NCBI GenBank assembly: GCA_964580865.1
Contig: CAZONM010000001.1
Location: forward strand, 2,825-66,824
Source: an uncultured Myxococcales bacterium
GTDB taxonomy: Bacteria; Myxococcota; UBA727; VGSZ01
Length of the DNA: 64,000 nucleotides
Direction of reading: 5' to 3'
Within the stretch, counting starts at the first letter, position 1, and each line of letters opens with the position of its first letter. The notes under the pieces were generated by a model. The model saw only the letters and a program-made list of their open reading frames with translations. It searched no databases and was not told the origin of the DNA. This document shows, in pieces, positions 7,737 to 31,615 of the stretch. Made by a program: the position numbers and the translations under genes.

Positions 7737-7769
7737 GCGGAAACCCAAGCGCTCGCGGGTGGAGGCACC

Positions 7770-12155: not shown

Positions 12156-12164
12156 GGTTACGGG

Positions 12165-12187: not shown

Positions 12188-12214
12188 CAAGCAAGCCGTG
12201 CTAGCCCGAAGCTC

Positions 12215-14923: not shown

Positions 14924-15207
14924 GCGCGCAGCCTACCCTTCCTGCCGGCAAGGGGCAGGGCGTTCGCGCGCAAGCTGCTCGGGCCCCCCATGTCTTCCCC
15001 GCGGGCGTCGGTCGCGCTCAGCCTCCTGGCGTCACCGATCGCACCGGTGCTCGCGCTCGCCCTACGGCGCCGCCCGTTCCTCGCCGCCGGCCTCGACACC
15101 TTCGTCCTCGTCTCCGTCAGCGGCGTGGCGGCGGAGGGCGCGAGCCCCAGCACCGGGGCGCGCACGTTGGAGGGTTTGCGCCGCCCTCCAACATTGCCAC
15201 AGTGCCG

Positions 15208-15533
15208 GCGTGTCCACCGTCGTCGTCTCCCGCGCCAAGCTCTGGCTCTACCGCGCCGTCGCGGTCCACCTCGCCGTCACCGCGCTCACGGGCCTCGCGC
15301 TCTACGCGCGTCCCCTCGACGATCGCCCCGGCTTGTACGGCGAGGTCGTCAAAGAGTGGCTCGTGATGATCCACAACGGCGAGTGGATCGGCCATCTGCT
15401 CTTCGGCAGGCGCTGGCTCACCGGCGTCGCGATCGGCGCCGCGCTCGCCTGGCCGCTGCTCCGGCACGCGCGCCGCGCGCTGGCCCCCGCCGCTAACCGA
15501 TCCGACGTCCTCGACGACGCACGCCCCGGCTGA
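15208..15533 (+). CDS. small His-containing membrane protein (hypothetical); possibly the 3' part of a frameshifted gene that begins at 14977
   Basis: GTG-start ORF with hydrophobic helices (VAVHLAVTALTGLALYA; WLTGVAIGAALAWPLL); an upstream ORF in another frame (14977.., MSSPRASVALSLLASPIAPVLALAL...) is separated from it by the hairpin at 15167..15191. Confidence 0.3.
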
Positions 15534-15597
15534 CCGGTTGGCCCTCCTCGCCCCGCACGACCTTGACAGCGCGCGTTCGGTGCCGTACAACGACTAC

Positions 15598-15616
15598 GAT
15601 AACGATTATCACAATC
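15598..15616. promoter_or_regulatory. Fur-box-like operator GATAACGATTATCACAATC (15/19 match to GATAATGATAATCATTATC) 30 nt upstream of the 15645 gene
   Basis: Seen directly in an AT-rich patch within otherwise >70% GC DNA; core inverted repeat GATAA-CGA-TTATC. Confidence 0.45.
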
Positions 15617-15644
15617 ACAACACGATCGCCACCACGGGACCCGC

Positions 15645-16457
15645 ATGCGCAGCCGCCGTCGCCACCTCCTCGCCGCCGCCCTCGTCGTCGCCACGGCGCT
15701 CCCGCTGGCGCAGGCCGCCCCCGCCACCGCCAGCGGCCGGCGCTTCACGTACACCTACGAGTCGCTGGTGCTCGCGCCCGGTCAGCTCGAGCTCGAGCCC
15801 TGGACCACCTTCCGCGGCGGGCGCGAGGAGCTGTACCTGCGCTTCGACGAGCGCATCGAGCTCGAGGTGGGCGTGATCGAGAACGTGCAGATGGCGTGGT
15901 ACCTGAACGCCAAGGCCGTCACCGAGGCCGCCGGGCCCGCGCTCAAGAAGGAGCTCGAGTTCACCGGGGTGTCGAACGAGTGGAAGTGGAAGATCCTCGA
16001 CCCCGTGGCCGACCCCGTGGGCCTGGCGCTCTACGGCGAGTGGACGGCGGCGCCGTCCGAGGCCGAGCTCGAGGCCAAGGTCATCGTCGACAAGCGCTTC
16101 GGCGACCTCATCGCCGCCGTGAACGTGGTGGGCGAGGTGGAGTGGGAGCTCGAGGAGCCCGGCGAGGTGGAGCAGGAGCTGGTGCTCGAGGTCGACGCCG
16201 GCCTCGCGTACCTGATCACGCCCGCCTTGGGGCTCGGCCTCGAGCTCGTCGACCACACCGACTTCGGCGGCGAGGGCTTCGAGCACTCCGCCGTCTTCGC
16301 CGGGCCCACCATCAGCTACGCGGGCGAGCGCTTCTGGGCCGCCGTCAGCGTGCTGCCCCAGGTGGTCGACCTCGGTCGCCTCGGCACCGCCGAGCTGCAA
16401 GACCTCCATCACCACGAGCGCATCAGCGCGCGTGTGCTGCTCGGCTTCGAGCTGTAA
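15645..16457 (+). CDS. secreted protein, acidic and beta-rich (possible small outer-membrane protein), hypothetical
   Basis: Signal peptide MRSRRRHLLAAALVVATALPLAQAAPA; alternating hydrophobic beta-strand pattern; C-terminus ...RVLLGFEL; preceded by the Fur-like box. Confidence 0.6.
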   Translation: MRSRRRHLLAAALVVATALPLAQAAPATASGRRFTYTYESLVLAPGQLELEPWTTFRGGREELYLRFDERIELEVGVIENVQMAWYLNAKAVTEAAGPALKKELEFTGVSNEWKWKILDPVADPVGLALYGEWTAAPSEAELEAKVIVDKRFGDLIAAVNVVGEVEWELEEPGEVEQELVLEVDAGLAYLITPALGLGLELVDHTDFGGEGFEHSAVFAGPTISYAGERFWAAVSVLPQVVDLGRLGTAELQDLHHHERISARVLLGFEL

Positions 16458-16475
16458 TCGCGAGGAGCGCGCACC

Positions 16476-16844
16476 GTGGCAGCACCGTCACCGTCGACCC
16501 GAGCAGGCGCCATCGCCCTGGCGGCGCTGGCGCTCGTCGTGGCGACGGCGTGCGCCACGCTGGCCGAGCCCACGCCCGTGGACGCGGCGTGGGCCGCGAC
16601 GCGCTGGCCCGACGCCACCGAGGATGAGCTCCGGCGTGGGCGCGCGCTCTACGTCAAGCGCTGCGCGGGCTGTCACGCGCTGCGCCTGCCCGAGCGCTAC
16701 CCGTCGAGCACCTGGGCCGAGCACGTCGATGAGATGGCCAAGCGCGCCAAGCTGCCCGGCGACGAGCGCGAGGTGATGCTGCGCTACCTCGTGACCATGA
16801 GCCGGCCCGATCGGCCCACGGAGGTCACCGCCTCGTCGCGCTGA
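16476..16844 (+). CDS. mono-haem c-type cytochrome lipoprotein
   Basis: Lipobox VATAC; single haem-binding CAGCH motif; 122 aa. Confidence 0.7.
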   Translation: MAAPSPSTRAGAIALAALALVVATACATLAEPTPVDAAWAATRWPDATEDELRRGRALYVKRCAGCHALRLPERYPSSTWAEHVDEMAKRAKLPGDEREVMLRYLVTMSRPDRPTEVTASSR

Positions 16845-16982
16845 CCGGTGCGGCGCCTTGCCACAGCGGCAGATCACCGCGGCGTTCGGCCGCGCCGGCG
16901 TCGACGACGCCTGCGCGTCCGAACGCGGCGCCGGAGGCCTCCGTTGCCGGTCGGCAAAACGCCGCGCCTGGCGCCGTGCGGT

Positions 16983-17000
16983 TGTAAGTAGCGTGTAAGT
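16983..17000. promoter_or_regulatory. direct repeat TGTAAGT-N4-TGTAAGT in an AT-richer patch ~90 nt upstream of the dihaem cytochrome/nar operon
   Basis: Read directly (gtTGTAAGTagcgTGTAAGTcgcc); it lies in the 240-bp intergenic region. Confidence 0.35.
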
Positions 17001-17086
17001 CGCCGGTGTTACCCACCGACCGTCAAGCCAGCGCTCCATCGCGTCCACCACGGGCGCGAGCAGGCGGCGCCGGAGGTCTGGTGGGT

Positions 17087-17965
17087 ATGACCAAGCACAG
17101 CACCAAGCACAGCCTTCTTCCACGGCGACTCACGGCCCTCGCGGCCGCGGCGGTCGCATGCGCGTTCTCGGCCCCGGCCAACGCGGCCACGGGCGAGGAG
17201 AACTACGCGAAGATCTGCGCCGCCTGCCACTCCATCGGTGGCGGCAGGCTCGTGGGCCCCGACCTCGCTGGCGTGACCACGCGCCGCTCCGAGGAGTGGC
17301 TCGTCAAGTTCATCAAGTCGCCGAAGGCCATGATCGACGCCGGTGACGCCGACGCCGTGGCGCTGTTCAAGGAATACAACCTGGTGATGCCCGACCCGCA
17401 GTACACCGAGGCGGAGATCAAGGACATCGTCGCGTACCTCGCCACCAAGAGCGGCGCCGCCGCCGTGGCGCCCACGCCGCCGCCGCCGCCCAAGGAGGCG
17501 TCGCCGGCCGAGATCGCGCGCGGCCAGAACCTGTTTCAGGGCCTCGAGCGCCTGAAGAACGGCGGCCCCGCCTGCAACTCGTGCCACCACGTCAAGAACG
17601 ACGCCGTCATCGGCGGCGGCGTCTTGGCCAAGGAGCTGACCACGGTGTTCAGCACCATGGGCACGCCCGGCATCAACGCCATCCTCGGCAAGCCGCCCTT
17701 CCCGGTGATGGCCGCCGCCTACGCCGAGCACCCGCTCACCGACGACGAGTCGGCCGCGCTCGTCGGCTTCCTGCAGGACGCCGACAAGAAGCACGAGCTG
17801 CAGCAGCCGCGCGACTACGGCTTCCGCCTGGTGTGGAGCGGCGCCGCCGCGCTGGTGCCGCTCATGGGCCTGTACTCGCTCATCTGGCGCAAGCGCAAGG
17901 TGCGCCCCGTGAACGAGAAGGTCTTCGATCGTCAGGTCAAGGGCGGCGACGACGTCGCGCAGTAA
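17087..17965 (+). CDS. dihaem c-type cytochrome with a C-terminal membrane anchor (NarC-like, nitrate-reductase-associated)
   Basis: ORF 17006..17965; ATG at 17087 gives the signal peptide MTKHSTKHSLLPRRLTALAAAAVACAFSAPANA; two CxxCH motifs (CAACH, CNSCH); C-terminal TM AAALVPLMGLYSLIW; 56 nt upstream of narG. Confidence 0.75.
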   Translation: MTKHSTKHSLLPRRLTALAAAAVACAFSAPANAATGEENYAKICAACHSIGGGRLVGPDLAGVTTRRSEEWLVKFIKSPKAMIDAGDADAVALFKEYNLVMPDPQYTEAEIKDIVAYLATKSGAAAVAPTPPPPPKEASPAEIARGQNLFQGLERLKNGGPACNSCHHVKNDAVIGGGVLAKELTTVFSTMGTPGINAILGKPPFPVMAAAYAEHPLTDDESAALVGFLQDADKKHELQQPRDYGFRLVWSGAAALVPLMGLYSLIWRKRKVRPVNEKVFDRQVKGGDDVAQ

Positions 17966-18021
17966 CCGTCCCATCGCGTTCGCTTCGATTTCCCAGGAAC
18001 GAGAGCTGAAGAGGTAGTGCC

Positions 18022-21000
18022 ATGAGCTGGATTCAGGACATCATCTCGCCCGAGACGCGCCAGTGGGAGGAGTTCTACCGGAACCGCTTCCAGCACGACC
18101 GCATCGTGCGCAGCACCCACGGCGTGAACTGCACGGGCGGTTGCTCGTGGCAGATCCACGTCAAGGACGGCATCGTCGTGTGGGAGACGCAGCAGCTCGA
18201 CTACCCGCTGCTCGAGGACTCGCTGCCGCCCTACGAGCCCCGCGGCTGCCAGCGCGGCATCTCGTACTCCTGGTACTTGTACAGCCCGCTGCGCATCAAG
18301 TACCCGCTGATCCGCGGCGCGCTCCTCGACGCGTTCGAGAAGGAGAAGGCGGCCGCCAAGGGTGACGCCGTCGTCGCGTGGGAGAACCTGCAGAAGGATC
18401 CGAAGAAGCGCCAGAGCTACCAGACGGCGCGCGGCAAGGGCGGCTTCCGCCGCACCACGTGGGACACCGTGCTCGAGCTCATGGGCGCGGCCAACATCTA
18501 CACCGCCAAGAAGTACGGCCCCGATCGCGTGTTCGGCTTCTCGCCCATCCCGGCGATGTCGATGCTCTCCTACGCGGCGGGCGCGCGCTTCCTGCAGCTG
18601 TTCGGCGGCGTCAACCTGAGCTTCTACGACTGGTACTGCGACCTGCCCACGGCGTTCCCCGAGATCTGGGGCGAGCAGACCGACGTGTGCGAGAGCGCCG
18701 ACTGGTACAACTCGAAGCTCATCGCCGACATGGGCGCGTGCCTCAACATGACGCGCACGCCCGACTGCCACTTCTTCGCCGAGGCGCGCCACAACGGCAC
18801 CAAGGCGGTGGTGTTCTCGCCGGACTTCAGCCAGGTCTGCAAGTACGCCGATCAGTGGGTGCCCCTGCACGCCGGCAGCGACGCGGCGTTCTGGATGGCC
18901 ACCACGCACGTGGTGCTCAAGGAGTTCCACCACGACAAGGCCACGCCGTACTTCATCGACTACTGCAAGAAGTACACGGACAGCCCGTACCTGGTGCACC
19001 TCGACAAGGAGGGCGATCACTACAAGCCCGGTCGCCTGGTGCGCGCCAACGAGATCGCCAAGTGGAAGGATCTCGACAACGGCGACTGGAAGTTCCTGAA
19101 CATCGACGGCAAGTCGAACGAGCTCGTCATCCCCAAGGGCAGCATGGGCCACCGCTGGGACAAGACCCAGGGCAACTGGAACATGCTCCACGAGAACGCG
19201 GCCGACAACAAGCCGTACGACCCGATGCTGACGCTGCTCGGCAACCGCGACGACACGCTCGCCTGCGAGTTCACCGAGTTCGGCCTCGACAAGACCGTGC
19301 TGCGCAACGTGCCCGTGCGCATGCTCGAGACCGCCAACGGCAAGGTGCCGGTCACCACGGTGTACGACCTGATCATGGGTCAGTACGGCGTGGGCCGCGG
19401 GCTGCCGGGTGACTACCCGAAGGACTACACCGACAAGAACCAGGCCTACACGCCGGCGTGGCAGGAGATCTTCACCGGCATCGACTCGAAGACGGTGCTG
19501 CAGTTCGCGCGCGAGTGGGCCAACACCGCCGAGACCACGCAAGGCAAGTGCATGGTCATCGTCGGCGCCGGCATCAACCACTGGTACCACGCGAACCTGA
19601 TGTACCGCTCGGCGGCCATGGCGCTGATGCTGTGCGGCTGCGTGGGTCGCAATGGTGGCGGCCTCAACCACTACGTCGGGCAAGAGAAGCTGGCGCCCGT
19701 CGACTCGTGGGCGTCCATCGCGTTCGCCAAGGACTGGCAGGGCCCGAGCCGCCTGCAGCAGGCGCCCCTGTGGCACTACATCAACACCTGCCAGTACCGC
19801 TACGACGGGCAGTTCTCCCGCTACAACGCCGTGCCGAAGAACGAGCGCACGTCGATGCACACGGCGGACACGATCTTCCAGTCGGTGCGCAACGGCTGGA
19901 TGCCCTTCTACCCGCAGTTCGAGGCTAGCCCCATCGAGCTGTGCAAGGACGCGGAGAAGGCCGGCGCCAAGAGCGACGCCGACATCGTCAACCACGTGGT
20001 GGGCAAGCTGAAGGACAAGTCGCTCGGCTACTCGGTCGGCGACCCCGACAGCGAGAAGAACTTCCCGCGCGTTTGGTACATCTGGCGCGGCAACGCGATC
20101 ATGGGCTCCATGAAGGGCCACGAGTACGCGCTCAAGCACTACTTGGGCACGCACTCGAACGCCATCGGCAAGGACAGCGACGAGCACCCGAAGGAAGTGA
20201 AGTGGCACGACGTCGCGCCCACCGGCAAGATGGACCTGATCGTCGACCTGAACTTCCGCATGGATTCGTCGGCGCTCTACTCCGACATCGTGCTGCCGGC
20301 GGCCTCTTGGTACGAGAAGGCCGACCTGAACTCGACCGACCTGCACTCGTTCATCCACCCGCTCTCGGCCGCCGTCGCCCCCGTGTGGGAGTCGAAGTCC
20401 GACTGGGAGATCTTCAAGGCGCTCGCCAAGGCGACCTCCGACGCCGCCAAGGTGCACCTGCCCGGCGTGCAGAAGGACATCGTGGCCACGCCGCTGTCCC
20501 ACGACAGCGCCGATGAGATCACGCAGCCGCGCATCAAGGATTGGTATCGCGGCGAGTGCGAGCCCGTGCCCGGCAAGTCGATGCACAAGCTCGGCGTGGT
20601 CGAGCGCGACTACACGAAGCTGTACGAGAAGTACGTCACGTACGGCGAGGGCGTCCGCAAGAGCGGCCTCGGCGCGCACGGCACGCACTACCGGTGCGAG
20701 GAGGAGTACGACCAGCTCCTCTCGTCGAACCACTTCCCGAAGGAGACGTTCAACGGCAAGGTCTATCCGTCGCTCAAGGAGGACAACCAGGCGGCCAACG
20801 TGCTCCTGCACATGTCCACCCTGACCAACGGCGCCTGCACCGTGAAGGCGTACCAGGAGATGGAGAAGAAGACCGGCCTGAAGCTGGTCGACCTCGCCGC
20901 CGGCTCCGAGGACGTGCGCATCACCTACGAGGACCTGCAGGCGCAGCCGCGGCGCTACAACACGGCGCCGGCGTGGTCGGGCCTGATGAACAACGGCCGC

Positions 21001-21639
21001 GCCTACGCGCCCTACACGTACAACTACGACAAGATGGTGCCGTGGCGCACGCTGACGGGCCGCCAGCACTTCTACCTCGACCAGGATCTGTACCTGGCCT
21101 ACGGCGAGCACCTGCCCACCTACAAGCCCTCGCCCAAGCCCGAGGCTTACGGTGACCTGAAGGAGACGTTGAAGGGTGGCCAGGCGCTGGCGCTCAACTG
21201 CCTGACGCCGCACGGCAAGTGGCACATCCACTCGACGTACATGGAGAACCACCGGATGCTCACCCTGTCGCGCGGCTGCGAGCCGTGCTGGATGAGCGAG
21301 GTGGACGCGCAGCAGCTCGGTATCCAGGACAACGACTGGGTCGAGGTCTACAACGACCACGGCGTGTACTGCACGCGCGCGTCGGTGAGCTCGCGTATCC
21401 CGCGCGGCGTGTGCATCGTGTACCACGTGCCCGAGCGCACCGTGGGCATCCCGAAGTCGCAGGTGCGCGGCAATCGGCGCGCCGGCGGTCACAACAGCTT
21501 TACGCGTATCCACCTCAAGCCCAACTACTTGAGCGGCGGCTACGGGCAGTTCAGCTACCACTTCAACTACTGGGGTCCCATTGCGCCGCAGCGGGACACG
21601 CACGTGGTCGTGAAGAAAATGACCAAGGTCGTCTTCTGA
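18022..21639 (+). CDS. narG: respiratory nitrate reductase alpha subunit NarG
   Basis: 1205 aa; N-terminal [11 protein letters not shown] Fe-S motif and molybdopterin-oxidoreductase domains along the full length. Confidence 0.97.
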
Positions 21640-21652
21640 GGAGAGGTGAGAG

Positions 21653-23203
21653 ATGGATATCAGAGCGCAAACGGCGGTGGTCTTTCACCTCGACAAGTGC
21701 ATCGGCTGCCACACCTGTTCGATCGCGTGCAAGAACATCTGGACCGATCGTAAGGGTGCCGAGTACCAGTGGTGGAACAACGTCGAGACCAAGCCCGGCA
21801 CGGGCTATCCCGGCAAGTGGGAAGACCAGAGCATCTACAACGGCGGTTGGGTCAAGGACGCGAACGGTCGCATCCAGCTCAAGGGCGCCGGCAAGAAGAA
21901 GGGCCTGCTCAACATCTTCCACAACCCGTCGTTGCCGACGGTGGAGGACTACTACGAGCCCTTCACGTACAACTACCTGAACCTGATCGAGGCGCCCCCG
22001 GGCAACGATCAGCCCACGGCGCGCCCGGTCTCGCTCATCACCGGTGAGCCCATCGACGTGAAGATGGGTCCCAACTGGGACGACGACCTGTCGGGCACGC
22101 CCGACTATGCGCGGAACGACCCGAACCTCGCGGCGCTCACGCCCGCCGAGCGCCAGGCGATGTTCCAGCTCGAGCGCATGGCGTTCTTCTACCTGCCGCG
22201 CATCTGCAACCACTGCCTGAACCCGGGCTGCGTGGCGTCGTGCCCGTCGGGCGCCATCTACAAGCGCGGTGAGGACGGCGTCGTCCTCATCAACCAGAAG
22301 GTGTGCCGCGCCTGGCGCATGTGCGTCACCGCGTGCCCCTACAAGAAGAGCTACTACAACTGGCACACCGGCAAGTCCGAGAAGTGCATCCTGTGCTACC
22401 CGCGCATGGAGGCGGGCTACGCGCCCGCGTGCATGCACTCGTGCGTCGGTCGCATCCGCTACATCGGCGTCATCCTGTACGACGCCGACAAGATCGAGGC
22501 GGCGGCGTCGGCGGAGCCGAAGGACCTGGTGGCCCGTCAGCTCGACCTGTTGATGGACCCGTTCGACGACAAGGTGATCGCCGCGGCCAAGGCCAACGGC
22601 ATCGCCGACTCGACCATCAAGGCCGCGCAGAACTCGCCCACCTTCAAGTTCATCAAGCAGTGGGGCATGGCGCTGCCGCTGCACCCCGAGTTCCGCACGC
22701 TGCCGATGCTGTGGTACGTGCCCCCGCTCCTCCCCGTCATGGCGTCGGTCACCCAGACCGACGGCGCGCAGAAGGAGAAGCTCAACCCCATCGCCAAGAC
22801 CTGGACCGACAACTGGCTCTACGACACCTCCACCGAGGAGCTGTGGGGCACGGTCGAGCAGGCGCGCTTCCCGCTCAAGTACCTCGCGAGCCTGTTCGCG
22901 GCGGGCGAGACCGGCGAGGTCTCGATGCGCCTGAAGAAGCTGATGGCGGTGCGCATCTACCGTCGTTGGAAGACCGTGGGCGACATCCCCGAGGCGCGCA
23001 TGACCAAGGCGCTCAAGGAGACGGGCCTCACGCAGGAGTCGGCCGAGGCGATCTTCTATTTGACCGCGCTCGCCAAGTTCAACGATCGCTTCGTCATCCC
23101 GCCCGCGCACCGCGAGCAGGCGATGGAGATGCTCGAGTTCACCGGCGACGTGAAGGGCTCCACGGGCTTCGGCTTCCGTGAGAAGCCCGAGCGAGGCATG
23201 TGA
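21653..23203 (+). CDS. narH: respiratory nitrate reductase beta subunit NarH
   Basis: 516 aa; four Cys clusters (CIGCHTCSIACK, CNHCLNPGCVASCP, CRAWRMCVTACP, CILCYPR...). Confidence 0.97.
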   Translation: MDIRAQTAVVFHLDKCIGCHTCSIACKNIWTDRKGAEYQWWNNVETKPGTGYPGKWEDQSIYNGGWVKDANGRIQLKGAGKKKGLLNIFHNPSLPTVEDYYEPFTYNYLNLIEAPPGNDQPTARPVSLITGEPIDVKMGPNWDDDLSGTPDYARNDPNLAALTPAERQAMFQLERMAFFYLPRICNHCLNPGCVASCPSGAIYKRGEDGVVLINQKVCRAWRMCVTACPYKKSYYNWHTGKSEKCILCYPRMEAGYAPACMHSCVGRIRYIGVILYDADKIEAAASAEPKDLVARQLDLLMDPFDDKVIAAAKANGIADSTIKAAQNSPTFKFIKQWGMALPLHPEFRTLPMLWYVPPLLPVMASVTQTDGAQKEKLNPIAKTWTDNWLYDTSTEELWGTVEQARFPLKYLASLFAAGETGEVSMRLKKLMAVRIYRRWKTVGDIPEARMTKALKETGLTQESAEAIFYLTALAKFNDRFVIPPAHREQAMEMLEFTGDVKGSTGFGFREKPERGM

Positions 23204-23898
23204 TGCTGCGCGTATCCCTCTACGACGCGCTCGCCGCGGTCTTCGCCCACCCAGGTCCGAGCTACCTCTCGGACCTGGCGCGGGCCATCACCGCGCTCGA
23301 GCACGAGTACCCCAAGGCCGCGGAGCAGCTGCGCGAGCTCGAGCGCCTCTTGCCCAAGGGCAACGCGCTCGCGCTCGAGGAGCTGTTCACCCGCACGTTC
23401 GACGTGCAGCCCATCACGTCGCTCGACGTGGGCTACACGCTGTTCGGTGAGGACTACAAGCGCGGCGCGCTGCTCGCAAACCTGAGCCGCGAGCACACGG
23501 TCGCGAAGAACGACTGCGGCGCCGAGCTGGCCGACAACCTCGGCAACGTGCTGCGCCTCTTGCCCCGCTGGACCGACGCCGCCGTGCGCGACGAGTTCGT
23601 GCACGTGCTGCTCGGCCGAGCGGTGGCGGAGATGATCCGCGAGTTCGAGCCCGCGCGACTCGCGAAGAAGGAAGAGATCTACAAGAAGCACCACAAGACC
23701 ATCATCGAGACCTTCGAGGGTGAGACGCGCGTGGCGTACCGCCACGCGCTCGGTGCGCTGTTCACGGTGCTCAAGGCCGACTTCGGCGTGAAGGTCGGGC
23801 TGCCCGTCGCCAACGAGTCGACGTTCGTCGCCGCCGTGGGCGCCGAGATGGGCATCGAGGGCGACGAGAGCTGCAACTCCTCCTGTGGCGTGAAGTGA
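23200..23898 (+). CDS. narJ: nitrate reductase molybdenum cofactor assembly chaperone NarJ
   Basis: 232 aa; start overlaps the narH stop (ATGA); NarJ/TorD family in the canonical position between narH and narI. Confidence 0.85.
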   Translation: MMLRVSLYDALAAVFAHPGPSYLSDLARAITALEHEYPKAAEQLRELERLLPKGNALALEELFTRTFDVQPITSLDVGYTLFGEDYKRGALLANLSREHTVAKNDCGAELADNLGNVLRLLPRWTDAAVRDEFVHVLLGRAVAEMIREFEPARLAKKEEIYKKHHKTIIETFEGETRVAYRHALGALFTVLKADFGVKVGLPVANESTFVAAVGAEMGIEGDESCNSSCGVK

Positions 23899-23905
23899 GA
23901 GGTAC

Positions 23906-24637
23906 GTGATGGAACTGTCGAACGTCTTTCTGTTCGTGGGCTTGCCCTACGCCGCGATGGTGATCTTCCTCCTGGGGACCATCCAGCGCTACCGCAACAA
24001 GGGCTTCAAGGTGTCGTCGTTGTCCTCGCAGTTCCTCGAGGGCAGGGCGCTGTTCTGGGGCATCGTGCCCTTCCACTTCGGCATCCTGGTGCTGTTCCTC
24101 GGCCACCTGTCGGCGTTCCTGCTGCCTGGTCCCACGCTCATGTGGAACGCCGACCCGATGCGGCTCATCACGCTCGAGATCACGGCCTTCGCCTTCGGCC
24201 TGTCCACGCTCGTGGGCTTGGCAGCGCTGTTCGTGCGCCGCCTCACCAACGTGCGCATCAAGATGGTGACGACGAAGATGGACATCTTCCTCGAGCTCCT
24301 GCTCTTGGTGCAGGTGGTGTTCGGCCTGTGGGTGGCCGTGGGCTATCGCTGGGGCTCGTCGTGGTTCGCCGCCGACCTGACTCCCTACCTGTGGTCGCTG
24401 TTCAAGGCCGACCCAAACATCCTGGCCGTGAGCGCCATGCCGTGGCCCATCAAGGTCCACATCGTGGGCGCGTGGCTCATCATCGGCATCTTCCCCTACA
24501 CCCGCCTCGTGCACTTCCTGGTGGCGCCGCTGCACTACATCACCCGTCCCTACCAGCGCGTGATGTGGAACTGGGATCGCAAGGCCATCCGCGACCCGCG
24601 CACGCCGTGGAGCGCGATGCGCCCGAAGAACAACTGA
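23906..24637 (+). CDS. narI: respiratory nitrate reductase gamma subunit NarI (dihaem cytochrome b)
   Basis: 243 aa; 5 TM helices with conserved His residues (HFGILVLFLGH, ...HIVGAWL...HFL). Confidence 0.9.
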   Translation: MMELSNVFLFVGLPYAAMVIFLLGTIQRYRNKGFKVSSLSSQFLEGRALFWGIVPFHFGILVLFLGHLSAFLLPGPTLMWNADPMRLITLEITAFAFGLSTLVGLAALFVRRLTNVRIKMVTTKMDIFLELLLLVQVVFGLWVAVGYRWGSSWFAADLTPYLWSLFKADPNILAVSAMPWPIKVHIVGAWLIIGIFPYTRLVHFLVAPLHYITRPYQRVMWNWDRKAIRDPRTPWSAMRPKNN

Positions 24638-24656
24638 CGACCAAGGCCATGCCGAC

Positions 24657-25343
24657 GTGAGCGATCTGATCCAGATTGGCGATAAGGGCGGTGATCCCGT
24701 CCGTCGGCAAGAAGAGCGGGGCTGCGACCAGCCCGACGGTCTCAGCCCCATGGACCCGCCCGACGCGTACGCGCCGCCGGGCGAGGTCCCGGGCGACGAG
24801 GCCGACCTCGCGAAGCGCCATGGCTACCTGCGCGCGCTCACGGGTGACCACGCGCGACTGATGGAGGCCATGGCGCTCGTCGAGGAGAAGCTCGCCAACG
24901 TGAGGGAGACGGGCTTCACGCAGGCCGCCGACGTGGCGGTGATGCGCTTTCTGGAGACCTTCGACCGCGAGTTCATCGCGCACAGCCGCGAGGAAGAGGC
25001 GCGGCTGTTCCCGCTCTTGCACGAGCGCCTCATCGCCGCCGGTGAGCACAGCAAGAGCCGCGTGATCACCACGGCCATCGACGTGATGAAGGACGAGCAC
25101 CTGAAGGCGGTGCAGCTCGCCGCCGTGGTGCTCAACCTGGTGCGCGTGGCGTCGGTGCTGCCCGACGAGAAGTCGGCGCAGCTCGTGGTCAACGCCGCGC
25201 TCGGCGAGCTCACGAAGCTCGTCGAGCTCTTGCGCCTGCACATCTTCCGCGAGGACGGCATCGTCTTTGCTCGTGCGCAGGGCCTGCTCTCCACCGCCGA
25301 GCTCGACGCCATGGGCGCCGCCGGCAGGAGACGCGACGGGTAG
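24657..25343 (+). CDS. hemerythrin-like (HHE cation-binding) domain protein
   Basis: 228 aa; H-x-x-x-E / HxE spacing (AHSREEEARLFPLLHERL, MKDEHL); embedded between narI and narK. Confidence 0.6.
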   Translation: MSDLIQIGDKGGDPVRRQEERGCDQPDGLSPMDPPDAYAPPGEVPGDEADLAKRHGYLRALTGDHARLMEAMALVEEKLANVRETGFTQAADVAVMRFLETFDREFIAHSREEEARLFPLLHERLIAAGEHSKSRVITTAIDVMKDEHLKAVQLAAVVLNLVRVASVLPDEKSAQLVVNAALGELTKLVELLRLHIFREDGIVFARAQGLLSTAELDAMGAAGRRRDG

Positions 25344-25358
25344 AAGAGGTCCTGCGTC

Positions 25359-26876
25359 ATGGAAGAAGTCGCGAGCGCCAAGTCACACAAGGCCCTGGTG
25401 CTAAACACCCTCGCGTTCACCGCCTGCTTCGCGGCGTGGATGCTGAACGGTGTGTTGGTCACGTTCCTCACCAACAACCAGGTGTACCCGTGGGGGCCCG
25501 TCGAGATCGGCTGGCTCATGGGCATCCCCGTGTTGACGGGCTCGCTCTTCCGCCTGCCTGCCGGGCTCCTCACCGACAAGTACGGCGGCAAGCCCGTGTT
25601 CACGGCCATGCTGATGTTCTGCGCGGTGCCCATGTACCTGCTGAGCACCGTCGACTCCTTCCTCGGCTTCGCTCTGTGTAGCTTCGGCTTCGGGCTCACG
25701 GGTGTGGGCTTCTCTATCGGCATCGCGTTCACCTCGGTGTGGTACCCGAAGAAGAACCAAGGCACGGCGCTGGGCATCTTTGGCGCCGGCAACGCCGGCG
25801 CGTCGCTGTCGACGCTGTTCGCGCCCACGCTGCTCAACCGCTTCACCAACGGCGGCGTCGACCTCGAGGGCTGGCGCATGTTGCCGAAGGTGTACGCGGC
25901 GATGCTGCTCGGCATCGGCGTGTTGTTCCTGATCTTCTCCACCAACAAGAAGCCGACCGCGACGAAGCTGACCCTCAAGCAGCAGCTCGAGCCCCTCAAG
26001 TCGGTGCGCGTGTGGCGCTTCGGCCTCTACTACTTCCTGGTGTTCGGGTGCTTCGTCGCGTTCTCGCAGTGGCTGGTGCCGTACTTCGTCAACGCCTACT
26101 ACATGCCGCTCGTCACCGCCGGCATCCTGGCCTCACTCTTCAGCTTCCCCTCGGGCGTGATCCGCGCGCTCGGCGGTTGGCTGTCGGACAAGTTCGGCGC
26201 GCGCCGCGTGATGTTCTGGGTGTTCGCCACCTCGTGCATCATCAGCGCCGCCGTCATCGTGCCGAAGATGGAGATCTACTCGCCCGGCCGCGGCGTCATG
26301 GCCATGCGCCCGGGCGTGGTGAGCGAGGTGAACTACGGCAGCATCACCGTGGGTCCCGACACCTACAAGCTCCAGCCCAAGCCCACCGAGCTCAAGACCT
26401 ACGACGAGACCATGGCCATCTTCCCCGGCAAGGAGACGTGGCAGGAGCCCGCCGTGGTGGTGGGGCAGAAGGTGCAGAAGCGCGAGCTCTTGGCCAAGGG
26501 CGTCACGCGCATCTTCTTTCAAGCCAACGTGTGGATCTACGCGTTCCTGGTCATGGTCATCGGCATCATCTGGGGCATCGGCAAGGCCGGCGTCTACAAG
26601 TACATCCCCGACTACTTCCCGCAGCAGGTGGGCGTGGTCGGCGGCATGGTCGGCGTCATCGGCGGCCTCGGGGGCTTCGTGTGCCCCATCCTGTTCGGCT
26701 ACCTGCTCGACTGGACCGGCCTGTGGACGAGCTGCTGGATGCTGATGCTGGCGCTGTCGATCGCATGCCTGTGGTGGATGCTGCGCGTGGTGCGCATCAT
26801 CGAGAAGAACGCCGCGCCCCAAGTGGCGCAGAGCTTCGAGCAGACGCCCGAGAAGCCAAGCAGCAACGGTTCGTGA
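25359..26876 (+). CDS. narK: nitrate/nitrite transporter NarK (MFS, NNP family), NarK1-type
   Basis: 505 aa; 12-TM MFS with NNP signature (GFGLTGVGFSIGIAFTSVWYP, GIFGAGNAGAS). Confidence 0.9.
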   Translation: MEEVASAKSHKALVLNTLAFTACFAAWMLNGVLVTFLTNNQVYPWGPVEIGWLMGIPVLTGSLFRLPAGLLTDKYGGKPVFTAMLMFCAVPMYLLSTVDSFLGFALCSFGFGLTGVGFSIGIAFTSVWYPKKNQGTALGIFGAGNAGASLSTLFAPTLLNRFTNGGVDLEGWRMLPKVYAAMLLGIGVLFLIFSTNKKPTATKLTLKQQLEPLKSVRVWRFGLYYFLVFGCFVAFSQWLVPYFVNAYYMPLVTAGILASLFSFPSGVIRALGGWLSDKFGARRVMFWVFATSCIISAAVIVPKMEIYSPGRGVMAMRPGVVSEVNYGSITVGPDTYKLQPKPTELKTYDETMAIFPGKETWQEPAVVVGQKVQKRELLAKGVTRIFFQANVWIYAFLVMVIGIIWGIGKAGVYKYIPDYFPQQVGVVGGMVGVIGGLGGFVCPILFGYLLDWTGLWTSCWMLMLALSIACLWWMLRVVRIIEKNAAPQVAQSFEQTPEKPSSNGS

Positions 26877-26898
26877 CGCGACGAGCGCGTGTGGAGGC

Positions 26899-28341
26899 AT
26901 GATGACGACGAGCACGGCAGCGGAAGGCGCGCGGGTGGGTGGGCTTGCGGGGTGGCTGCCGGCGTGGGCGCCCGAGGACGCGCAGTTCTGGGCCGCCGAG
27001 GGCAAGAGGCGCGCGTGGCTCACGCTCACGCTCACCACGCTCGGGCTCATCGCGTCGTTCGCCACCTGGTTCGTCTTCAGCGCGGTGGCCGTGCGCCTGC
27101 CGAACATCGGCTTCACGTTCGACACCATGCAGCTGTTCTGGTTGAGCGCCATGCCCGGGCTCTCGGGCGGCTCGCTGCGGCTCATCCACAGCTTCCTCAC
27201 GCCCATCTACGGCACGCGCCTCACGGTGTCGGTGGCGACCTTCCTCAAGATCTTCCCCATGCTCTGGCTCGGCGTCGCGGTGCAGAACCCCGACACGCCC
27301 TACTCGAGCTTCCTCATCATCGCGTTCCTGTGCGGCATGGGCGGCGGCGACTTCTCGTCGTTCATGCCCTCGACGTCGATGTTCTTTCCGAAGCGCCTGC
27401 AGGGCACGGCGCTCGGCCTGCAGGCCGGCATTGGCAACCTCGGCGTGTCGATCGTGCAGTTCGTGACGCCGTGGATCATCGGCTTCCCGCTGTTGTCGGC
27501 CTTCGGCGGGCCGCAGCCCTTCGTCAAGGGCGAGGTGCACAAGGACATCTGGCTGCAGAACGCGGCCTTCTGGTACGTGCCCTACCTCGCGCTCGCGGGC
27601 GTGCTGTGCTTCATGTTCTTGCGCTCGGTGCCGGGCAAGAAGCCGGCGGTGGGCGACATGTTGAAGAGCATGGTGAGCGACCGCCACGTGTGGTTCTGCG
27701 TCATCACCTACGTCATGACCTTCGGCACCTTCTCGGGGCTCGCGGCCGCCTTCCCGCTCATGATCAAGTCGATCTACGGCGGCTTCCCCGACGCGCCCGA
27801 CCCGCTCAAGTACGCCTTCCTCGGCCCGCTGGTCGGCTCCGCCGTGCGCTTCATCGGCGGGCCGCTGGCCGACAAGTTCGGCGGCAGCATCTGGACCCAG
27901 ATCTCCGGCGCCGGCCTCATCCTCGGCAGCCTGGCGCTCATCTTCGGCGGCTACCTGACGCCCACGGGCCTCGAGCAATTCTCGGGCTTCGTGTGGATCA
28001 TGCTCTTCCTCTTCCTCTCGGCCGGCATCGGCAACTTCGCCACCTTCCGCCAGTACCCCATCGTCTTCGCGTACGACGCCAGGAAGGGTGCGCAGGTGCT
28101 CGGCTGGACGGGCGCCTGGGCCGCCTACGGCCCCCTGCTGTTCTCGTCGCTGATCGGTGCGAGCATCTCGACGTTCGGCTCGGCCAAGGCCTTCTTCTGG
28201 GGCGCTTGCGCCTTCTTCGTCGTCGGCAGCGCCATCAACTGGTGGTGCTACACGCGGCCGGGCGGCGAGCGCTGCGACTACGGCTCATGGAAGGGCACGT
28301 GGTGGGACAAGGCCAAGGACACCTGGCCCACCAAGAGCTGA
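26899..28341 (+). CDS. narK: second nitrate/nitrite transporter, NarK2-type antiporter (MFS, NNP family)
   Basis: 480 aa; MFS NNP signature (GMGGGDFSSFMPSTSMFFPKRLQGTALGLQAGIGNLG); tandem narK1-narK2 layout. Confidence 0.9.
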   Translation: MMTTSTAAEGARVGGLAGWLPAWAPEDAQFWAAEGKRRAWLTLTLTTLGLIASFATWFVFSAVAVRLPNIGFTFDTMQLFWLSAMPGLSGGSLRLIHSFLTPIYGTRLTVSVATFLKIFPMLWLGVAVQNPDTPYSSFLIIAFLCGMGGGDFSSFMPSTSMFFPKRLQGTALGLQAGIGNLGVSIVQFVTPWIIGFPLLSAFGGPQPFVKGEVHKDIWLQNAAFWYVPYLALAGVLCFMFLRSVPGKKPAVGDMLKSMVSDRHVWFCVITYVMTFGTFSGLAAAFPLMIKSIYGGFPDAPDPLKYAFLGPLVGSAVRFIGGPLADKFGGSIWTQISGAGLILGSLALIFGGYLTPTGLEQFSGFVWIMLFLFLSAGIGNFATFRQYPIVFAYDARKGAQVLGWTGAWAAYGPLLFSSLIGASISTFGSAKAFFWGACAFFVVGSAINWWCYTRPGGERCDYGSWKGTWWDKAKDTWPTKS

Positions 28342-28342
28342 C

Positions 28343-30592: not shown

Positions 30593-30595
30593 CGG

Positions 30596-31615
30596 TCAGC
30601 CCCCGATCCGCGACATCCCGATGGTGGTGATGGCGCCTTCGCTCCACGCGTGGCCCATGGGCTTGAGCGCGGCCGCGCTGGTGAAGCGCGCCTCGATGAG
30701 CGCCTCGTCGCGCGCGCGCGCGGCGTCGCGCAGGGGCACGCTCACCTCGTAGGCCAGGCACGGGCGCAGCTCGCCGGTGGAGGTGAGGCGGAAGCGGCTG
30801 CACGAGTCGCAGTAGCGATCGGAGATGGGCGTGATGAACCCCACCACGCCGAGCGCGCCCGGGATGCGCCAGTAGCGCGCCGGCCCGTTGCCCGGCAGGC
30901 CGCTCGTCGACACTAAGCCGTAGTCGGCCGTGAGCCGCTGGCGCACCTTGGTGAGGTCGACGTAGCGCTCGGCGAGGTTCTGCGCCGCGCCCTCGCCCAC
31001 GGGCATGAGCTCGAGCAGGCGCACCACCAGATCGTGCTCGCGCGTCAGCTCCACCCAGGCGTCGATCTCGTCGTCGTTCATGCCCTTCAAGACCAGCACG
31101 TTGATCTTGAGCGGCCGCAGGCCCGCGCCGGCGGCCTTGCGCACGCCGCGCCACACGTCGTCGAGGGAGCCGTTGCACGTGATGGCGCGGAAGCGCTCGG
31201 GCTTGAGCGAGTCGACGCTGACGGTGAGGCGATCGAGCCCGGCCGCGGCCAGCTGGTCGACGTGGCGCTCGAGCAGCATGCCGTTGGTGGTCATGGCCAC
31301 CTCGCGCACGGTGGTCTCGCGCTTGAGCTGGGCGATGAGGTCGGGCACGCCGGCGCGCACCAGCGGCTCACCGCCGGTGATGCGCACGCGGTTGACGCCG
31401 AGGCGGCTCGCCACGCGCACGATGGCGGTGATGTCGTCGAACGACAGCAGCTCGTCGGGCCGCTCGAAGGCGTGCAGCCCGCGCGGCAGGCAGTACTCGC
31501 AGCGCAGGTTGCAGCGATCGGTCACCGAGATGCGCAGGCTCTTGACCGTGCGGCCGCAGCTGTCGGCCAGCGTGGCCCCGCCACCCGTGCGCCCCGTTGC
31601 GAGCTCACCCGCCAT
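30596..31615 (-). CDS. moaA: GTP 3',8-cyclase MoaA (molybdenum cofactor biosynthesis, radical SAM)
   Basis: 339 aa; radical-SAM CNLRCEYC cluster and C-terminal CDSCSRFRLTSTGELRPC cluster; GGEPL motif. Confidence 0.93.
   Translation of the reverse strand: MAGELATGRTGGGATLADSCGRTVKSLRISVTDRCNLRCEYCLPRGLHAFERPDELLSFDDITAIVRVASRLGVNRVRITGGEPLVRAGVPDLIAQLKRETTVREVAMTTNGMLLERHVDQLAAAGLDRLTVSVDSLKPERFRAITCNGSLDDVWRGVRKAAGAGLRPLKINVLVLKGMNDDEIDAWVELTREHDLVVRLLELMPVGEGAAQNLAERYVDLTKVRQRLTADYGLVSTSGLPGNGPARYWRIPGALGVVGFITPISDRYCDSCSRFRLTSTGELRPCLAYEVSVPLRDAARARDEALIEARFTSAAALKPMGHAWSEGAITTIGMSRIGG

Follow-up and report, generated by a model that had tools for sequence, protein, structure and literature searches.

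Does this locus encode a respiratory nitrate reductase of a known type, and which of the surrounding genes belong to it? The window, by which we denote the entire stretch of 64,000 nucleotides that was analyzed, comes from an uncultured high-GC bacterium, and in our reading, to which as a whole we assign a probability of roughly 0.75, it carries an intact operon for respiratory nitrate reductase of the Thermus type (or 'NarC-type'). Open reading frames and profile searches confirmed the nine genes listed in a previous sequence-only reading, all on the + strand and in the order given there:

16476..16844, + strand: mono-haem cytochrome c lipoprotein of 122 aa ('cyt1'), with one CAGCH motif
17087..17965, + strand: narC, periplasmic dihaem cytochrome c (CAACH and CNSCH motifs; homology to Thermus NarC)
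18022..21639, + strand: narG, Mo-bisPGD catalytic subunit (TIGR01580, 1455 bits; cutoff 1084)
21653..23203, + strand: narH, iron-sulfur subunit (TIGR01660, 639 bits, cutoff 524; contains Fer4_11 and Nitr_red_bet_C)
23200..23898, + strand: narJ, divergent TorD-family assembly chaperone (39% identity with the NarJ of Thermus, E 2e-21)
23906..24637, + strand: narI, dihaem b membrane subunit with the quinol oxidation site (PF02665, 196 bits)
24657..25343, + strand: hemerythrin-like di-iron protein of 228 aa (PF01814, 50.7 bits)
25359..26876, + strand: narK1, NarK-family MFS nitrate/nitrite transporter (MFS_1, 137 bits; TIGR00886, 182 bits, below cutoff)
26899..28341, + strand: narK2, second NarK-family MFS transporter (best families TIGR00886 with 248 bits and NarU with 254 bits, neither reaching its cutoff)

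The small or overlapping gaps that had been claimed for the whole series hold from narC to narK2, where they range from -4 to 56 bp and a scan found no terminator-like site, but not for the mono-haem cytochrome gene, which is separated from narC by 242 bp. All open reading frames of the locus are intact, and with values of 0.87-0.97 the GC3 of its genes is like that of their neighbors. The lower overall GC content between 18 and 28 kb originates from codon positions 1 and 2 and not from foreign codon usage.

The locus is a complete one for a membrane-bound nitrate reductase, as had been proposed, with narG, narH and narI identified by HMM and narJ by its identity to the Thermus protein. NarG has no Tat signal, and the active site is therefore located on the cytoplasmic side. 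Whether NarG might lack the ligands for Mo-bisPGD had been raised as a decisive point; it does not: aligned with the structures of E. coli NarG (E = 0), it retains the 11-residue His/Cys motif of FS0 and the Mo-ligand Asp of YCDLP, the equivalent of E. coli D222. Likewise, the four haem-ligand histidines of E. coli NarI (H56, H66, H187 and H205) are all kept. The curated equivalog cutoffs are unmet by narJ (TIGR00684, 20.8 bits), narK1 and narK2; the position of narJ is kept in all related loci and that of narK1 is common to many. NarG is 58-59% identical to Thermus NarG, but less than 48% to all other plasmid-borne NarGs, and its N-terminus is short, as is typical for the Thermus enzyme (PMC10609526).

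The cytochrome encoded directly upstream of narG had been likened to Thermus NarC, and the alignment suggested at the time bears this out. A tblastn search yielded 35% identity (E 2e-14) to a Thermus match that is itself located directly 5' of narG, and a full-length alignment gave 33% identity end to end, with C44xxC47H48, C163xxC166H167, M101P102, PFPVM208 and the C-terminal anchor all kept. The protein begins with a signal peptide, its C-terminal transmembrane anchor is followed by a short cytoplasmic tail that is also conserved, and its gene ends 56 bp upstream of narG. Judged by its sequence, the dihaem cytochrome is thus a true full-length NarC homologue. In a comparison set of about 160 related loci, narG directly follows the NarC homologue in all 70 of the 70 loci with room for it (median gap about 41 bp), and narI is present downstream in 50 of 51 narC-type loci. 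This adjacency spans MAGs of Myxococcota-like bacteria, Gemmatimonadota, Gamma- and Betaproteobacteria, Acidobacteriota and Planctomycetota. The nearest relatives of the contig are labelled only as 'Deltaproteobacteria bacterium', Myxococcales or Polyangiaceae, and narC-type operons are common in MAGs with these labels. The earlier description of the lineage as one usually viewed as aerobic finds no support in the window.

By homology with E. coli and Thermus, NarK1 and NarK2 would import nitrate and export nitrite, while NarI would oxidize quinol at the periplasmic face and pass the electrons via its two b haems and the iron-sulfur clusters of NarH to the cytoplasmic Mo-bisPGD site of NarG. 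Insertion and synthesis of the cofactor would be the tasks of NarJ and MoaA. For NarC the analogy is with Thermus, where the roles of this protein and of DnrS and DnrT have been described (PMC7694296, PMC6282519). It would be anchored beside NarI with its two c haems in the periplasm, and we expect it to act as a fourth, structural subunit required for assembly. It would in addition form a side branch through which the NarI haems and cytochromes of the periplasm exchange electrons. The window contains no nir, nor or nos genes, so that a branch from NarC to downstream enzymes of denitrification is unsupported here.

The 242-bp gap upstream of narC also bears on transcription, together with two genes beyond narK2:

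16983..17000, + strand: TGTAAGT-AGCG-TGTAAGT, a heptamer repeated directly with a periodicity of 11 bp, 87 bp upstream of narC
17010..17015, + strand: -10-like hexamer TACCCA, a putative promoter element 9 nt after the second heptamer
28343..30592, - strand: REC-GAF-wHTH (Trans_reg_C)-BTAD regulator of 749 aa, assigned by Pfam domains, a homologue of Thermus DnrS
30596..31615, - strand: moaA, radical SAM protein of molybdenum cofactor biosynthesis (Radical_SAM and Mob_synth_C)

TGTAAGT-N4-TGTAAGT is found exactly once in the window. A search of 1.8 Mb of related loci for exact GTAAG-N6-GTAAG gave 31 sites, every one of them on the + (coding) strand. Of these, 26 precede narC by 38-119 bp, and among the remaining five there are four upstream of genes of the narK family. 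A 'TA' at a fixed distance past the repeat is conserved in the aligned sites of 27 loci, and a generic sigma-70 scan retrieved no promoter match. The repeat is likely an operator that marks the nar promoter, and it is the candidate operator of the SARP-type regulator, overlapping the -35 region of this promoter. From this promoter, narC-narG-narH-narJ-narI-hemerythrin-narK1-narK2 would be transcribed as one unit.

The regulator gene is convergent with narK2, the two stop codons being 1 nt apart, and its product aligns with the GAF protein encoded beside narC in Thermus, at the dnrS position, with 30% identity over 523 aa (E 1e-39), but has an added receiver domain. Homologues flank narC operons in L008, L013, L016, L036, L084, L086-L089 and L141. 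The repeat motif is present in 13 of 14 loci with a GAF-wHTH-BTAD regulator versus 15 of 85 without, and in 12 to 15 loci the motif is not accompanied by such a regulator within 10 kb. Co-occurrence and the SARP-like geometry of the repeat make this pairing of regulator and operator the most likely one, and the DnrS homologue would then bind here as SARP-type activators bind heptamers with an 11-bp spacing, turning on the operon when phosphorylated (REC) and when its GAF domain receives a redox, O2 or NO signal. The functional nar locus runs past position 28341 to include the regulator and moaA, the latter being the right border of the block of genes that is present or absent together with nar. 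Regulator, moaA and operator repeat had gone unmentioned in the sequence-only reading.

What, then, is the role of the hemerythrin? Its place within the nar locus, noted before, has become a stronger case: members of this family of 622 uncharacterised homologues of roughly 220 aa are encoded directly 3' of narI in 68 of 68 loci, with narC upstream in 21 of 21, which argues that the gene is nar-dedicated and not an incidental insertion. It follows narI irrespective of a subsequent narK (8/44), and only 7 of 51 narC-type operons in the set found through NarC carry it, so that it is not essential for the enzyme. An N-terminal extension with an invariant SPMDPP motif precedes a four-helix bundle, placed at residues 56-227 in the AF2 model (pLDDT 84.6). 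H55, H65, H109, H131, H148, H195 and E199 are invariant in the family, and E113 is nearly so. The protein scores 37 bits against the RIC family (cutoff 204.7), and a profile search found no ScdA_N domain. Its nearest solved relatives, equally distant, are the hemerythrin domain of FBXL5, an iron/oxygen sensor (E 1.3e-5), and YtfE, a repair protein (E 3.6e-5). In our view the hemerythrin is a di-iron accessory protein of the cytoplasm, linked to the enzyme as such, that would most likely act in a RIC-like manner, protecting or repairing the iron-sulfur and metal centers of NarGH against NO or O2 arising from nitrate and nitrite turnover.

A sensor function, in which binding of O2 or NO at the di-iron site would modulate the activity of Nar or the transcription of its genes, is to us the less likely alternative, with some features in its favor. 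It would liken the protein to the Drp proteins, whose genes come after the nar operon of Thermus, or to the hemerythrin sensor domains of FBXL5 and DcrH, and FBXL5 does provide the best match among solved structures. In addition, the invariant SPMDPP motif, predicted to be disordered, looks like a partner-binding peptide. The Thermus genes at the equivalent position, drpAB, modulate nitrate signalling, and their domains are DUF1858, which resembles the N-terminal domain of RIC, and DUF2249. The latter is elsewhere fused to hemerythrin (PMC6282519). However, YtfE is an equally good relative, the ligand pattern H...HxxxE...H...HxxxE fits the spacing in RIC, a Pfam search revealed no DNA-binding or signalling output domain, and the gene stays with narI whether the nearby regulator is DnrS-like (the window and L084) or NarXL (L166).

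More doubtful still is a mainly reversed electron flow with respect to NarC, such that periplasmic c-type cytochromes, for example the mono-haem lipoprotein, would donate via NarC and NarI to NarGH, or that the complex would run as a nitrite oxidoreductase (NXR) like the cytoplasmic one of the Nitrobacter type. Woeseiaceae, Acidiferrobacterales and Chromatiales, lineages rich in lithotrophs, often have narC-type operons in their MAGs, and the mono-haem lipoprotein always adjoins a cytochrome with a NarC haem-1-type domain; it is a possible redox partner of the haem-1 domain of NarC. A review on Thermus reports a very similar cluster, NarC homologue included, for the NXR of Nitrobacter hamburgensis (PMC7694296). 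Against this, among characterised enzymes the nitrate reductase of Thermus, an activity demonstrated experimentally (PMC7694296), is the closest, the two NarK transporters, moaA and the DnrS-type regulator fit nitrate respiration, and genes for carbon fixation or of the nitrifier type are absent from the window.

Upstream of the promoter, the mono-haem cytochrome gene is preceded by two further genes:

15210..15533, + strand: small predicted membrane protein of 107 aa (gene call on the identical Logan contig L001)
15645..16457, + strand: DUF6662 protein of 270 aa, signal peptide present (PF20367, 35.3 bits; cutoff 27)

The 107-aa protein matches no Pfam family and is kept in L005 and also in L164, a relative without nar; its gene is the first of an upstream module outside the nar transcription unit. 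The interval considered earlier starts at 15645 with the DUF6662 gene, which had not been listed; as a cytochrome it is ruled out, its sequence having no CxxCH haem motif. The protein is 65-79% identical in L004, L005, L164 and L165, and with its strand-like alternating sequence it is probably an outer-membrane beta-barrel; a single-sequence AF2 model reached a pLDDT of only 31. Nine homologues of the mono-haem lipoprotein share, without exception, the lipobox Cys26, C63xxC66H67 and M87; the family is tiny, with 18 matches, and restricted to the closest relatives. L164 and L165 retain the DUF6662 and mono-haem genes, while narG through the regulator are absent and moaA directly abuts the cytochrome module. 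Compared with L004 and L005, the nar proteins are 85-98% identical versus 74-79% for DUF6662 and the mono-haem cytochrome, pointing to strong purifying selection on the nar proteins.

The description of the mono-haem lipoprotein as a dedicated nar cytochrome is therefore not borne out: located upstream of the nar promoter and kept in nar-less relatives, it and DUF6662 are not nar-dedicated, and the two would represent a separate, older module beside nar. That they are true nar parts forming an extended periplasmic or outer-membrane electron path from NarC is improbable, for in spite of their same-strand arrangement next to nar, kept in the four closest loci (L001, L004, L005 and L084), and the exclusive association of the mono-haem family with NarC-type cytochrome domains, the pair is missing from the narC operons of all the other loci, roughly 95 in number, is less conserved than the nar proteins, outlasts the loss of nar in L164 and L165 and is set apart by the conserved operator and promoter.

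A nitrate-respiration operon with the extra c-type cytochrome subunit NarC is of a kind described so far only in Thermus. The loci compared here show that the NarC-type operon is widespread in uncultured mesophilic bacteria, where it often comes with a hemerythrin gene of its own and a conserved regulatory DNA repeat.

Gene calls in the window, whose G+C content is about 72%, were backed by third-position GC and by the gene tables of identical public contigs. They yield the following features.

15210-15533, plus strand: small membrane ORF
15645-16457, plus strand: DUF6662 protein with a signal peptide and no CxxCH motif
16476-16844, plus strand: mono-haem cytochrome c lipoprotein
17087-17965, plus strand: dihaem cytochrome c (narC)
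18022-21639, plus strand: narG
21653-23203, plus strand: narH
23200-23898, plus strand: narJ
23906-24637, plus strand: narI
24657-25343, plus strand: hemerythrin-domain protein
25359-26876, plus strand: NarK-family transporter, narK1
26899-28341, plus strand: NarK-family transporter, narK2
28343-30592, minus strand: regulator of 749 aa with REC, GAF, Trans_reg_C and BTAD domains
30596-31615, minus strand: moaA

The sequence-only reading had placed nine genes, from the mono-haem lipoprotein to narK2, in the interval 15645-28341, and gene calls and HMMs recovered all nine in the order claimed. They do lie inside this interval, but the gene that opens it at 15645 is an unlisted one, encoding the DUF6662 protein that is devoid of a CxxCH motif. 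The small or overlapping gaps described for the whole series are found from narC to narK2 (-4 to 56 bp), but not between the mono-haem gene and narC, which are 242 bp apart. Nor does the locus end at 28341, as the regulator gene (28343-30592) and moaA (30596-31615) lie beyond it on the minus strand. Note that the stop codons of narK2 and of the opposing regulator gene are a single nucleotide apart (28341-28343) with no terminator-like structure between them, so that convergent transcription could couple expression of the operon with that of the regulator. A dip in G+C content at 18-28 kb is confined to codon positions 1 and 2 and GC3 stays at 0.87-0.97, which led us to dismiss recent acquisition from a low-GC donor as its cause. 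The window contains no nir, nor, nos or nrf genes, and the source contig has its closest relatives in MAGs that bear the label 'Deltaproteobacteria bacterium'.

Directly upstream of the cytochrome genes, a series of trehalose and cation-antiporter genes looks like an osmoadaptation cluster. In the stretch 5958-13984 there are genes for two Na+/H+ exchangers, for a fused GT20 trehalose-6-phosphate synthase, with a trehalose phosphatase gene beside it, and for a GH15 trehalase-like protein; a Na+/Ca2+ exchanger gene (13988-14932, minus strand) comes next. Downstream, an exopolysaccharide cluster (Wza/Wzz, glycosyltransferases, GDP-mannose dehydratase) contains several ORFs without a Pfam family as well as an IS66-family transposase fragment (41673-42344, minus strand) beside a patch of about 60% GC (44000-50000; elsewhere about 72%); this cluster looks variable and was possibly acquired.

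Respiratory nitrate reductase is among the best-studied anaerobic respiratory enzymes, and its textbook form is the three-subunit complex of E. coli. That the locus encodes a complete membrane-bound enzyme of this kind is borne out by the scores of NarG (TIGR01580, the NarG equivalog model, 1455.6 bits against a cutoff of 1084) and NarH (TIGR01660, 639 bits against 524), and by NarI, where the four haem-b histidines align with H56, H66, H187 and H205 of E. coli. NarI itself scores just under the cutoff of its curated model (TIGR00351, 104.4 bits against 105.55) and reaches 196 bits with PF02665. NarG matches the E. coli NarG structures at E = 0 and keeps the H-x3-C-x3-C motif of FS0, whose residues we take to correspond to E. 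coli H49/C53/C57, while the aspartate of its YCDLP motif, counted on the alignment, is the Mo-ligand D222 of E. coli. The sequence-only reading had made its case depend on NarG retaining the Mo-bisPGD ligands, and with both the FS0 motif and the Mo-ligand aspartate conserved on the alignment this objection falls away. The N-terminus of NarG is devoid of a twin-arginine motif, which points to an active site facing the cytoplasm, and this predicted orientation fits the two NarK-family transporters encoded downstream. It is also short, lacking the approximately 16-residue NarJ-binding tail of E. coli NarG. The same is seen in Thermus NarG, where the missing tail has already been remarked upon (PMC10609526). 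NarG is 58-59% identical to Thermus NarG and less than 48% identical to every other plasmid-borne NarG. NarJ remained below the cutoff of its curated model (TIGR00684, 20.8 bits against 59.35) and had no Pfam match even at E 5; it is 39% identical to Thermus NarJ (E 2e-21), and its gene position is conserved.

The dihaem cytochrome had been likened to the NarC arrangement of Thermus, and this comparison holds over the full length of the protein. A MAFFT alignment with Thermus NarC runs end to end at 33% identity (tblastn: 35% over 70% of the query, E 2e-14), with conservation of M101P102, PFPVM208 and the anchor region, and the haem motifs CAACH (C44, C47, H48) and CNSCH (C163, C166, H167) are invariant in the alignment, Thermus NarC included. 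In a translated search of plasmids, Thermus megaplasmid genes were the only full-domain matches. Inspection of the sequence reveals exported haem domains and a C-terminal membrane anchor, with an N-terminal signal peptide that ends after ANA and before ATG, and a hydrophobic stretch, LVWSGAAALVPLMGLYSLIW, that is followed by RKRK. The gene is the first of the nar operon and narG follows directly after 56 bp, just as in T. thermophilus SG0.5JP17-16 the gene of the NarC homologue lies directly upstream of narG, in the narC position (cf. PMC7694296). Thermus NarC is needed for maturation and membrane attachment of NarGH and can pass electrons to periplasmic acceptors (PMC7694296, PMC10609526). 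Neither Pfam nor NCBIfam holds a NarC model, and a structure search returned no solved NarC structure; the haem-1 domain alone matches class-I cytochromes, namely ActA of ACIII (6btm) and a SCO1-cytochrome c (2l4d). Behind the anchor, the cytoplasmic tail RKRK-x2-PVN-x3-F-D-R-Q-V-K (17900-17965) shows cross-phylum conservation, albeit not clearly in Thermus, and hints at contact with a cytoplasmic partner. The locus is thus a NarC-type, or Thermus-type, nitrate respiration module; the observation of the sequence-only reading is confirmed, and its interpretation is supported in part.

The NarC family comprises more than 1,700 homologues in public data, and the window proteins were mapped onto 80 genome loci fetched with NarC as the seed. 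All 70 loci that extend 1 kb or more downstream have narG directly after narC (median gap about 41 bp), and narI follows in 50 of the 51 that provide enough room. The hosts are all MAGs, labelled as Deltaproteobacteria, Myxococcales, Polyangiaceae, Bradymonadales, Gemmatimonadota, several gammaproteobacterial orders, Acidobacteriota, Planctomycetota, Schekmanbacteria and others. In the literature searched, narCGHJI as a term occurs in seven papers, all of them on Thermus, and the four-subunit NarC form is treated there as a Thermus speciality. Some 160 relatives show it to be frequent among uncultured genomes of Myxococcota-like bacteria, Gemmatimonadota, Proteobacteria, Acidobacteriota and Planctomycetota. 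Note that three of the related loci (L092:10571-16611, minus strand; L157:7880-13074; L158:4264-9434) carry a second, distant NarG/NarH pair (43-50% identity) after a hemerythrin-bearing narC operon, and this pair may be another enzyme of the type II DMSO-reductase family, for instance a periplasmic Nar or an NXR-like one.

The protein encoded between narI and narK1 belongs to the HHE cation-binding superfamily, as judged by its score (PF01814, 50.7 bits against a cutoff of 25.3), its His/Glu ligands and the four-helix bundle of its AF2 model. We further studied its family, 622 homologues of about 215-245 aa of which none is characterised, and fetched 80 metagenome loci seeded on it. The ligand pattern is H65, H109-x3-E113, H148 and H195-x3-E199, plus H55 and H131; there is no variation at H65, H109, H148, H195 and E199, and next to none at E113. 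An N-terminal motif, D-P-x3-Q-x-E-x-G followed further on by S-P-M-D-P-P, is likewise invariant. The AF2 model has a pLDDT of 84.6 and exceeds 90 in the bundle (residues 56-227), while confidence is low at the N-terminus in spite of its conservation. A Foldseek search of the model against the PDB returned hemerythrin-like proteins as best matches, all of them weak and of a generic hemerythrin-like or four-helix-bundle type. By profile, the nearest solved relatives are at equal distance, the repair protein YtfE (E 3.6e-5) and the hemerythrin domain of FBXL5 (E 1.3e-5), the latter a sensor. As judged by profile and fold, a sensor role is as plausible as one in repair. With the RIC/YtfE model TIGR03652 the match is weak, 37 bits against a cutoff of 204.7, and is limited to the C-terminal di-iron half, and a domain search found no ScdA_N domain; the protein is not a member of the RIC family, although it may work like one.

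In all 68 loci that extend 300 bp or more upstream, narI immediately precedes the hemerythrin gene (median gap 36 bp), and narC heads the operon in all 21 that extend at least 7.9 kb; yet the protein is present in only 7 of 51 NarC-seeded loci. For the NarC-type enzyme it is hence an optional accessory, but one strictly dedicated to this enzyme wherever it is found. As evidenced by the downstream genes, with narK directly following in only 8 of 44 loci, and by L166, a related locus where the hemerythrin-bearing operon stands beside narX-narL and not beside a DnrS-type regulator, it travels with the enzyme and not with a particular regulator or transporter. We favour a role in enzyme-centred protection or repair, because the gene stays linked to the enzyme whatever the type of regulator, because the protein has no output domain, and because its ligand spacing resembles that of RIC proteins. 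In the literature searched, the only other case of a hemerythrin co-localised with nar genes was bhr-11 of Methylomonas denitrificans FJG1, which encodes a protein of 110 aa (PMC12607906).

Over 523 aa, the regulator downstream of narK2 has 30% identity (E 1e-39) with the Thermus GAF protein whose gene adjoins narC, in the position of dnrS. It shows the features of a DnrS-type protein, a GAF domain followed by wHTH (Trans_reg_C) and BTAD domains, a gene beside the narC operon, and homology, with a receiver (REC) domain added relative to the DnrS homologue. At least 14 of the fetched loci have a homologue next to the narC operon. A perfect direct repeat, TGTAAGT-AGCG-TGTAAGT (16983-17000), the sole exact copy in the window, is situated in the 242-bp gap ahead of narC. 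A scan for exact GTAAG-N6-GTAAG across 1.8 Mb from 160 related loci yielded 31 occurrences, all on the coding strand, of which 26 lie 38-119 bp upstream of narC and one at 447 bp upstream of it (L012). The other four are found in two Polyangiaceae/Myxococcales MAG loci, L008 (2866, 17670) and L013 (2194, 17696), two of them just upstream of a separate narK2-narK1 pair and two more upstream of another narK-like MFS gene. As the repeat also precedes narK-type genes, it appears to define a small regulon rather than a single promoter. Of 14 loci with a GAF-wHTH-BTAD regulator 13 have the motif, against 15 of 85 with none visible within 10 kb. At a constant distance behind the second repeat there is a conserved 'TA', such as a -10 element would show. 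Characteristic of SARP (wHTH-BTAD) activators are heptamer direct repeats with an 11-bp periodicity next to the -10 region. From this geometry, together with the conservation of the repeat and its co-occurrence with the regulator, we take the repeat as the candidate operator of the regulator and place the putative nar promoter at about 16983-17015. A search for FNR/CRP-type boxes (TTGA-N6-TCAA, one mismatch) gave 10 sites, none of them in the region 14.9-18.1 kb around narC, a generic sigma-70 promoter scan found no match, and terminator-like matches were at chance level and inside coding sequence. In three gammaproteobacterial narC loci (L052, L058, L065) the TGTAAG repeat is absent, and a different heptamer direct repeat of the same 11-bp period, TGTGTCA-N4-AGTGTCA, is found about 360-400 bp upstream of narC; these loci also encode a shorter wHTH-BTAD-type regulator, about 30% identical to residues 456-720 of the window regulator, and the two may constitute a parallel operator-regulator pair.

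The mono-haem protein upstream of narC is a genuine lipoprotein cytochrome in which the lipobox cysteine, CxxCH and one methionine are invariant. Its assignment as a dedicated nar cytochrome could not be maintained, as the family is tiny, with 18 matches, and the protein is kept together with DUF6662 in two relatives, L164 and L165, that have no nar genes. Upstream of narC the pair occurs only in the closest relatives (L001, L004, L005 and L084, of which L001 is the identical contig). Locus flanks in L164 and L165 share 70-82% DNA identity with those of the window, and their gene order is a small ORF, DUF6662, the mono-haem lipoprotein, a mono-haem anchored cytochrome of 184-202 aa whose likeness to NarC is limited to the haem-1 domain plus an anchor, and then directly moaA. 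Missing from both is the stretch corresponding to 17395-30598 of the window, comprising the second NarC domain, narGHJI, hemerythrin, narK1, narK2 and the regulator. This nar block is therefore a presence/absence unit of 13.2 kb, and the DUF6662/cytochrome pair exists without it. Its flanks contain no tRNA, integrase or Rfam element. The short cytochrome was also considered as a recent deletion derivative or recombinant of the window narC, but at 56-59% it is no closer to the window NarC than are NarCs from other phyla (54-62%), and this origin was rejected. As the mono-haem/DUF6662 pair always adjoins a NarC-type haem-1 domain, it may be a redox partner of such domains. The conserved four-gene module (window 15210-16844; L164:121-2436; L165:209-2104), present in relatives lacking nar genes, might be a small electron-transfer unit of the periplasm or outer membrane. 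DUF6662 is a probable beta-barrel; its single-sequence AF2 model had a pLDDT of 31 and gave no usable structure.

Taken jointly, these data can be read to the effect that NarC-type Nar is not a Thermus peculiarity but a major cross-phylum form in mesophilic environmental bacteria. A large subset would possess a so far unrecognised fifth protein, a nar-dedicated di-iron hemerythrin docked through its invariant N-terminal SPMDPP peptide on cytoplasmic NarGH(I) as a built-in guard against NO/O2 or a maintenance factor for metal centres. NarC would exchange electrons with periplasmic cytochromes, for instance the lipoprotein cytochrome encoded next to it or, in lineages that oxidise sulfur and iron, lithotrophic donors. 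In that case Nar would also act as a quinol:cytochrome c or a cytochrome c:nitrate oxidoreductase. We regard this reading as tentative and put its probability at roughly one in four. As far as found in the literature, a hemerythrin family dedicated to nar, a DnrS-like REC-GAF-SARP regulator and a cross-phylum direct repeat as candidate operator are new. Across phyla, as seen in about 160 relatives, a DnrS-type regulator and the sharply conserved candidate operator accompany the NarC form, and among close relatives the whole nar block is gained or lost. Operator, regulator and accessory protein are testable points of entry into the control and protection of nitrate respiration in environmental bacteria. 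They also bear on whether Nar complexes supply periplasmic cytochrome pools or draw from them, a question that affects models of denitrification and of N2O/NO release in soils, sediments and groundwater.

[quoted passage not shown] In both cases the first gene encodes an anchored periplasmic dihaem cytochrome c, and narG, narH, narJ, narI and one or more NarK-family transporters follow in this order. NarG has no Tat signal, has a short N-terminus and shows the highest identity among the NarGs compared (58-59%), a GAF-wHTH-BTAD regulator homologous to DnrS is encoded nearby, and the nar block behaves like an accessory unit, being present in some close relatives and absent from others. In the window, however, the regulator has an additional N-terminal receiver domain and is encoded convergently downstream, whereas in Thermus it is divergent and upstream. 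The window locus is without genes for the CRP-type DnrT, the nrc NADH dehydrogenase and drpAB, but has the hemerythrin between narI and narK and an adjacent moaA. Thermus narC is not preceded by the TGTAAG repeat, the two NarCs are only 33% identical, and the window host belongs to a high-GC, apparently mesophilic MAG lineage.

With NarGHJI of the E. coli/Paracoccus type (PDB 1Q16) the window enzyme shares the FS0 His/Cys residues, the Mo-ligand aspartate, the NarH clusters, the four NarI histidines, the NarJ chaperone and, as predicted, a cytoplasm-facing active site. E. coli in contrast has no NarC, its NarG is less than 48% identical and carries the approximately 16-residue longer N-terminal tail that binds NarJ, and regulation there is by FNR and NarXL, whereas the window has no FNR box near narC. 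Like the di-iron repair proteins RIC/YtfE/ScdA and hemerythrin-like sensor domains (FBXL5), the hemerythrin has a four-helix-bundle HHE domain and the H...HxxxE...H...HxxxE ligand pattern, and its gene is linked to nitrogen-oxide metabolism. What sets it apart is the absence of ScdA_N, its score on TIGR03652 (37 bits against 204.7), the family-specific N-terminal extension with the invariant DP...Q.E.G...SPMDPP motif, and the strict place after narI. With the SARP activators AfsR, ActII-ORF4 and DnrI of Streptomyces, finally, the regulator shares the wHTH (Trans_reg_C) and BTAD architecture, and its candidate site resembles SARP operators in having two heptamers with an 11-bp periodicity, 9 nt upstream of a -10-like element. 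Here, however, the repeat is TGTAAGT, REC and GAF input domains are added, and the predicted target is a respiratory operon instead of antibiotic biosynthesis.
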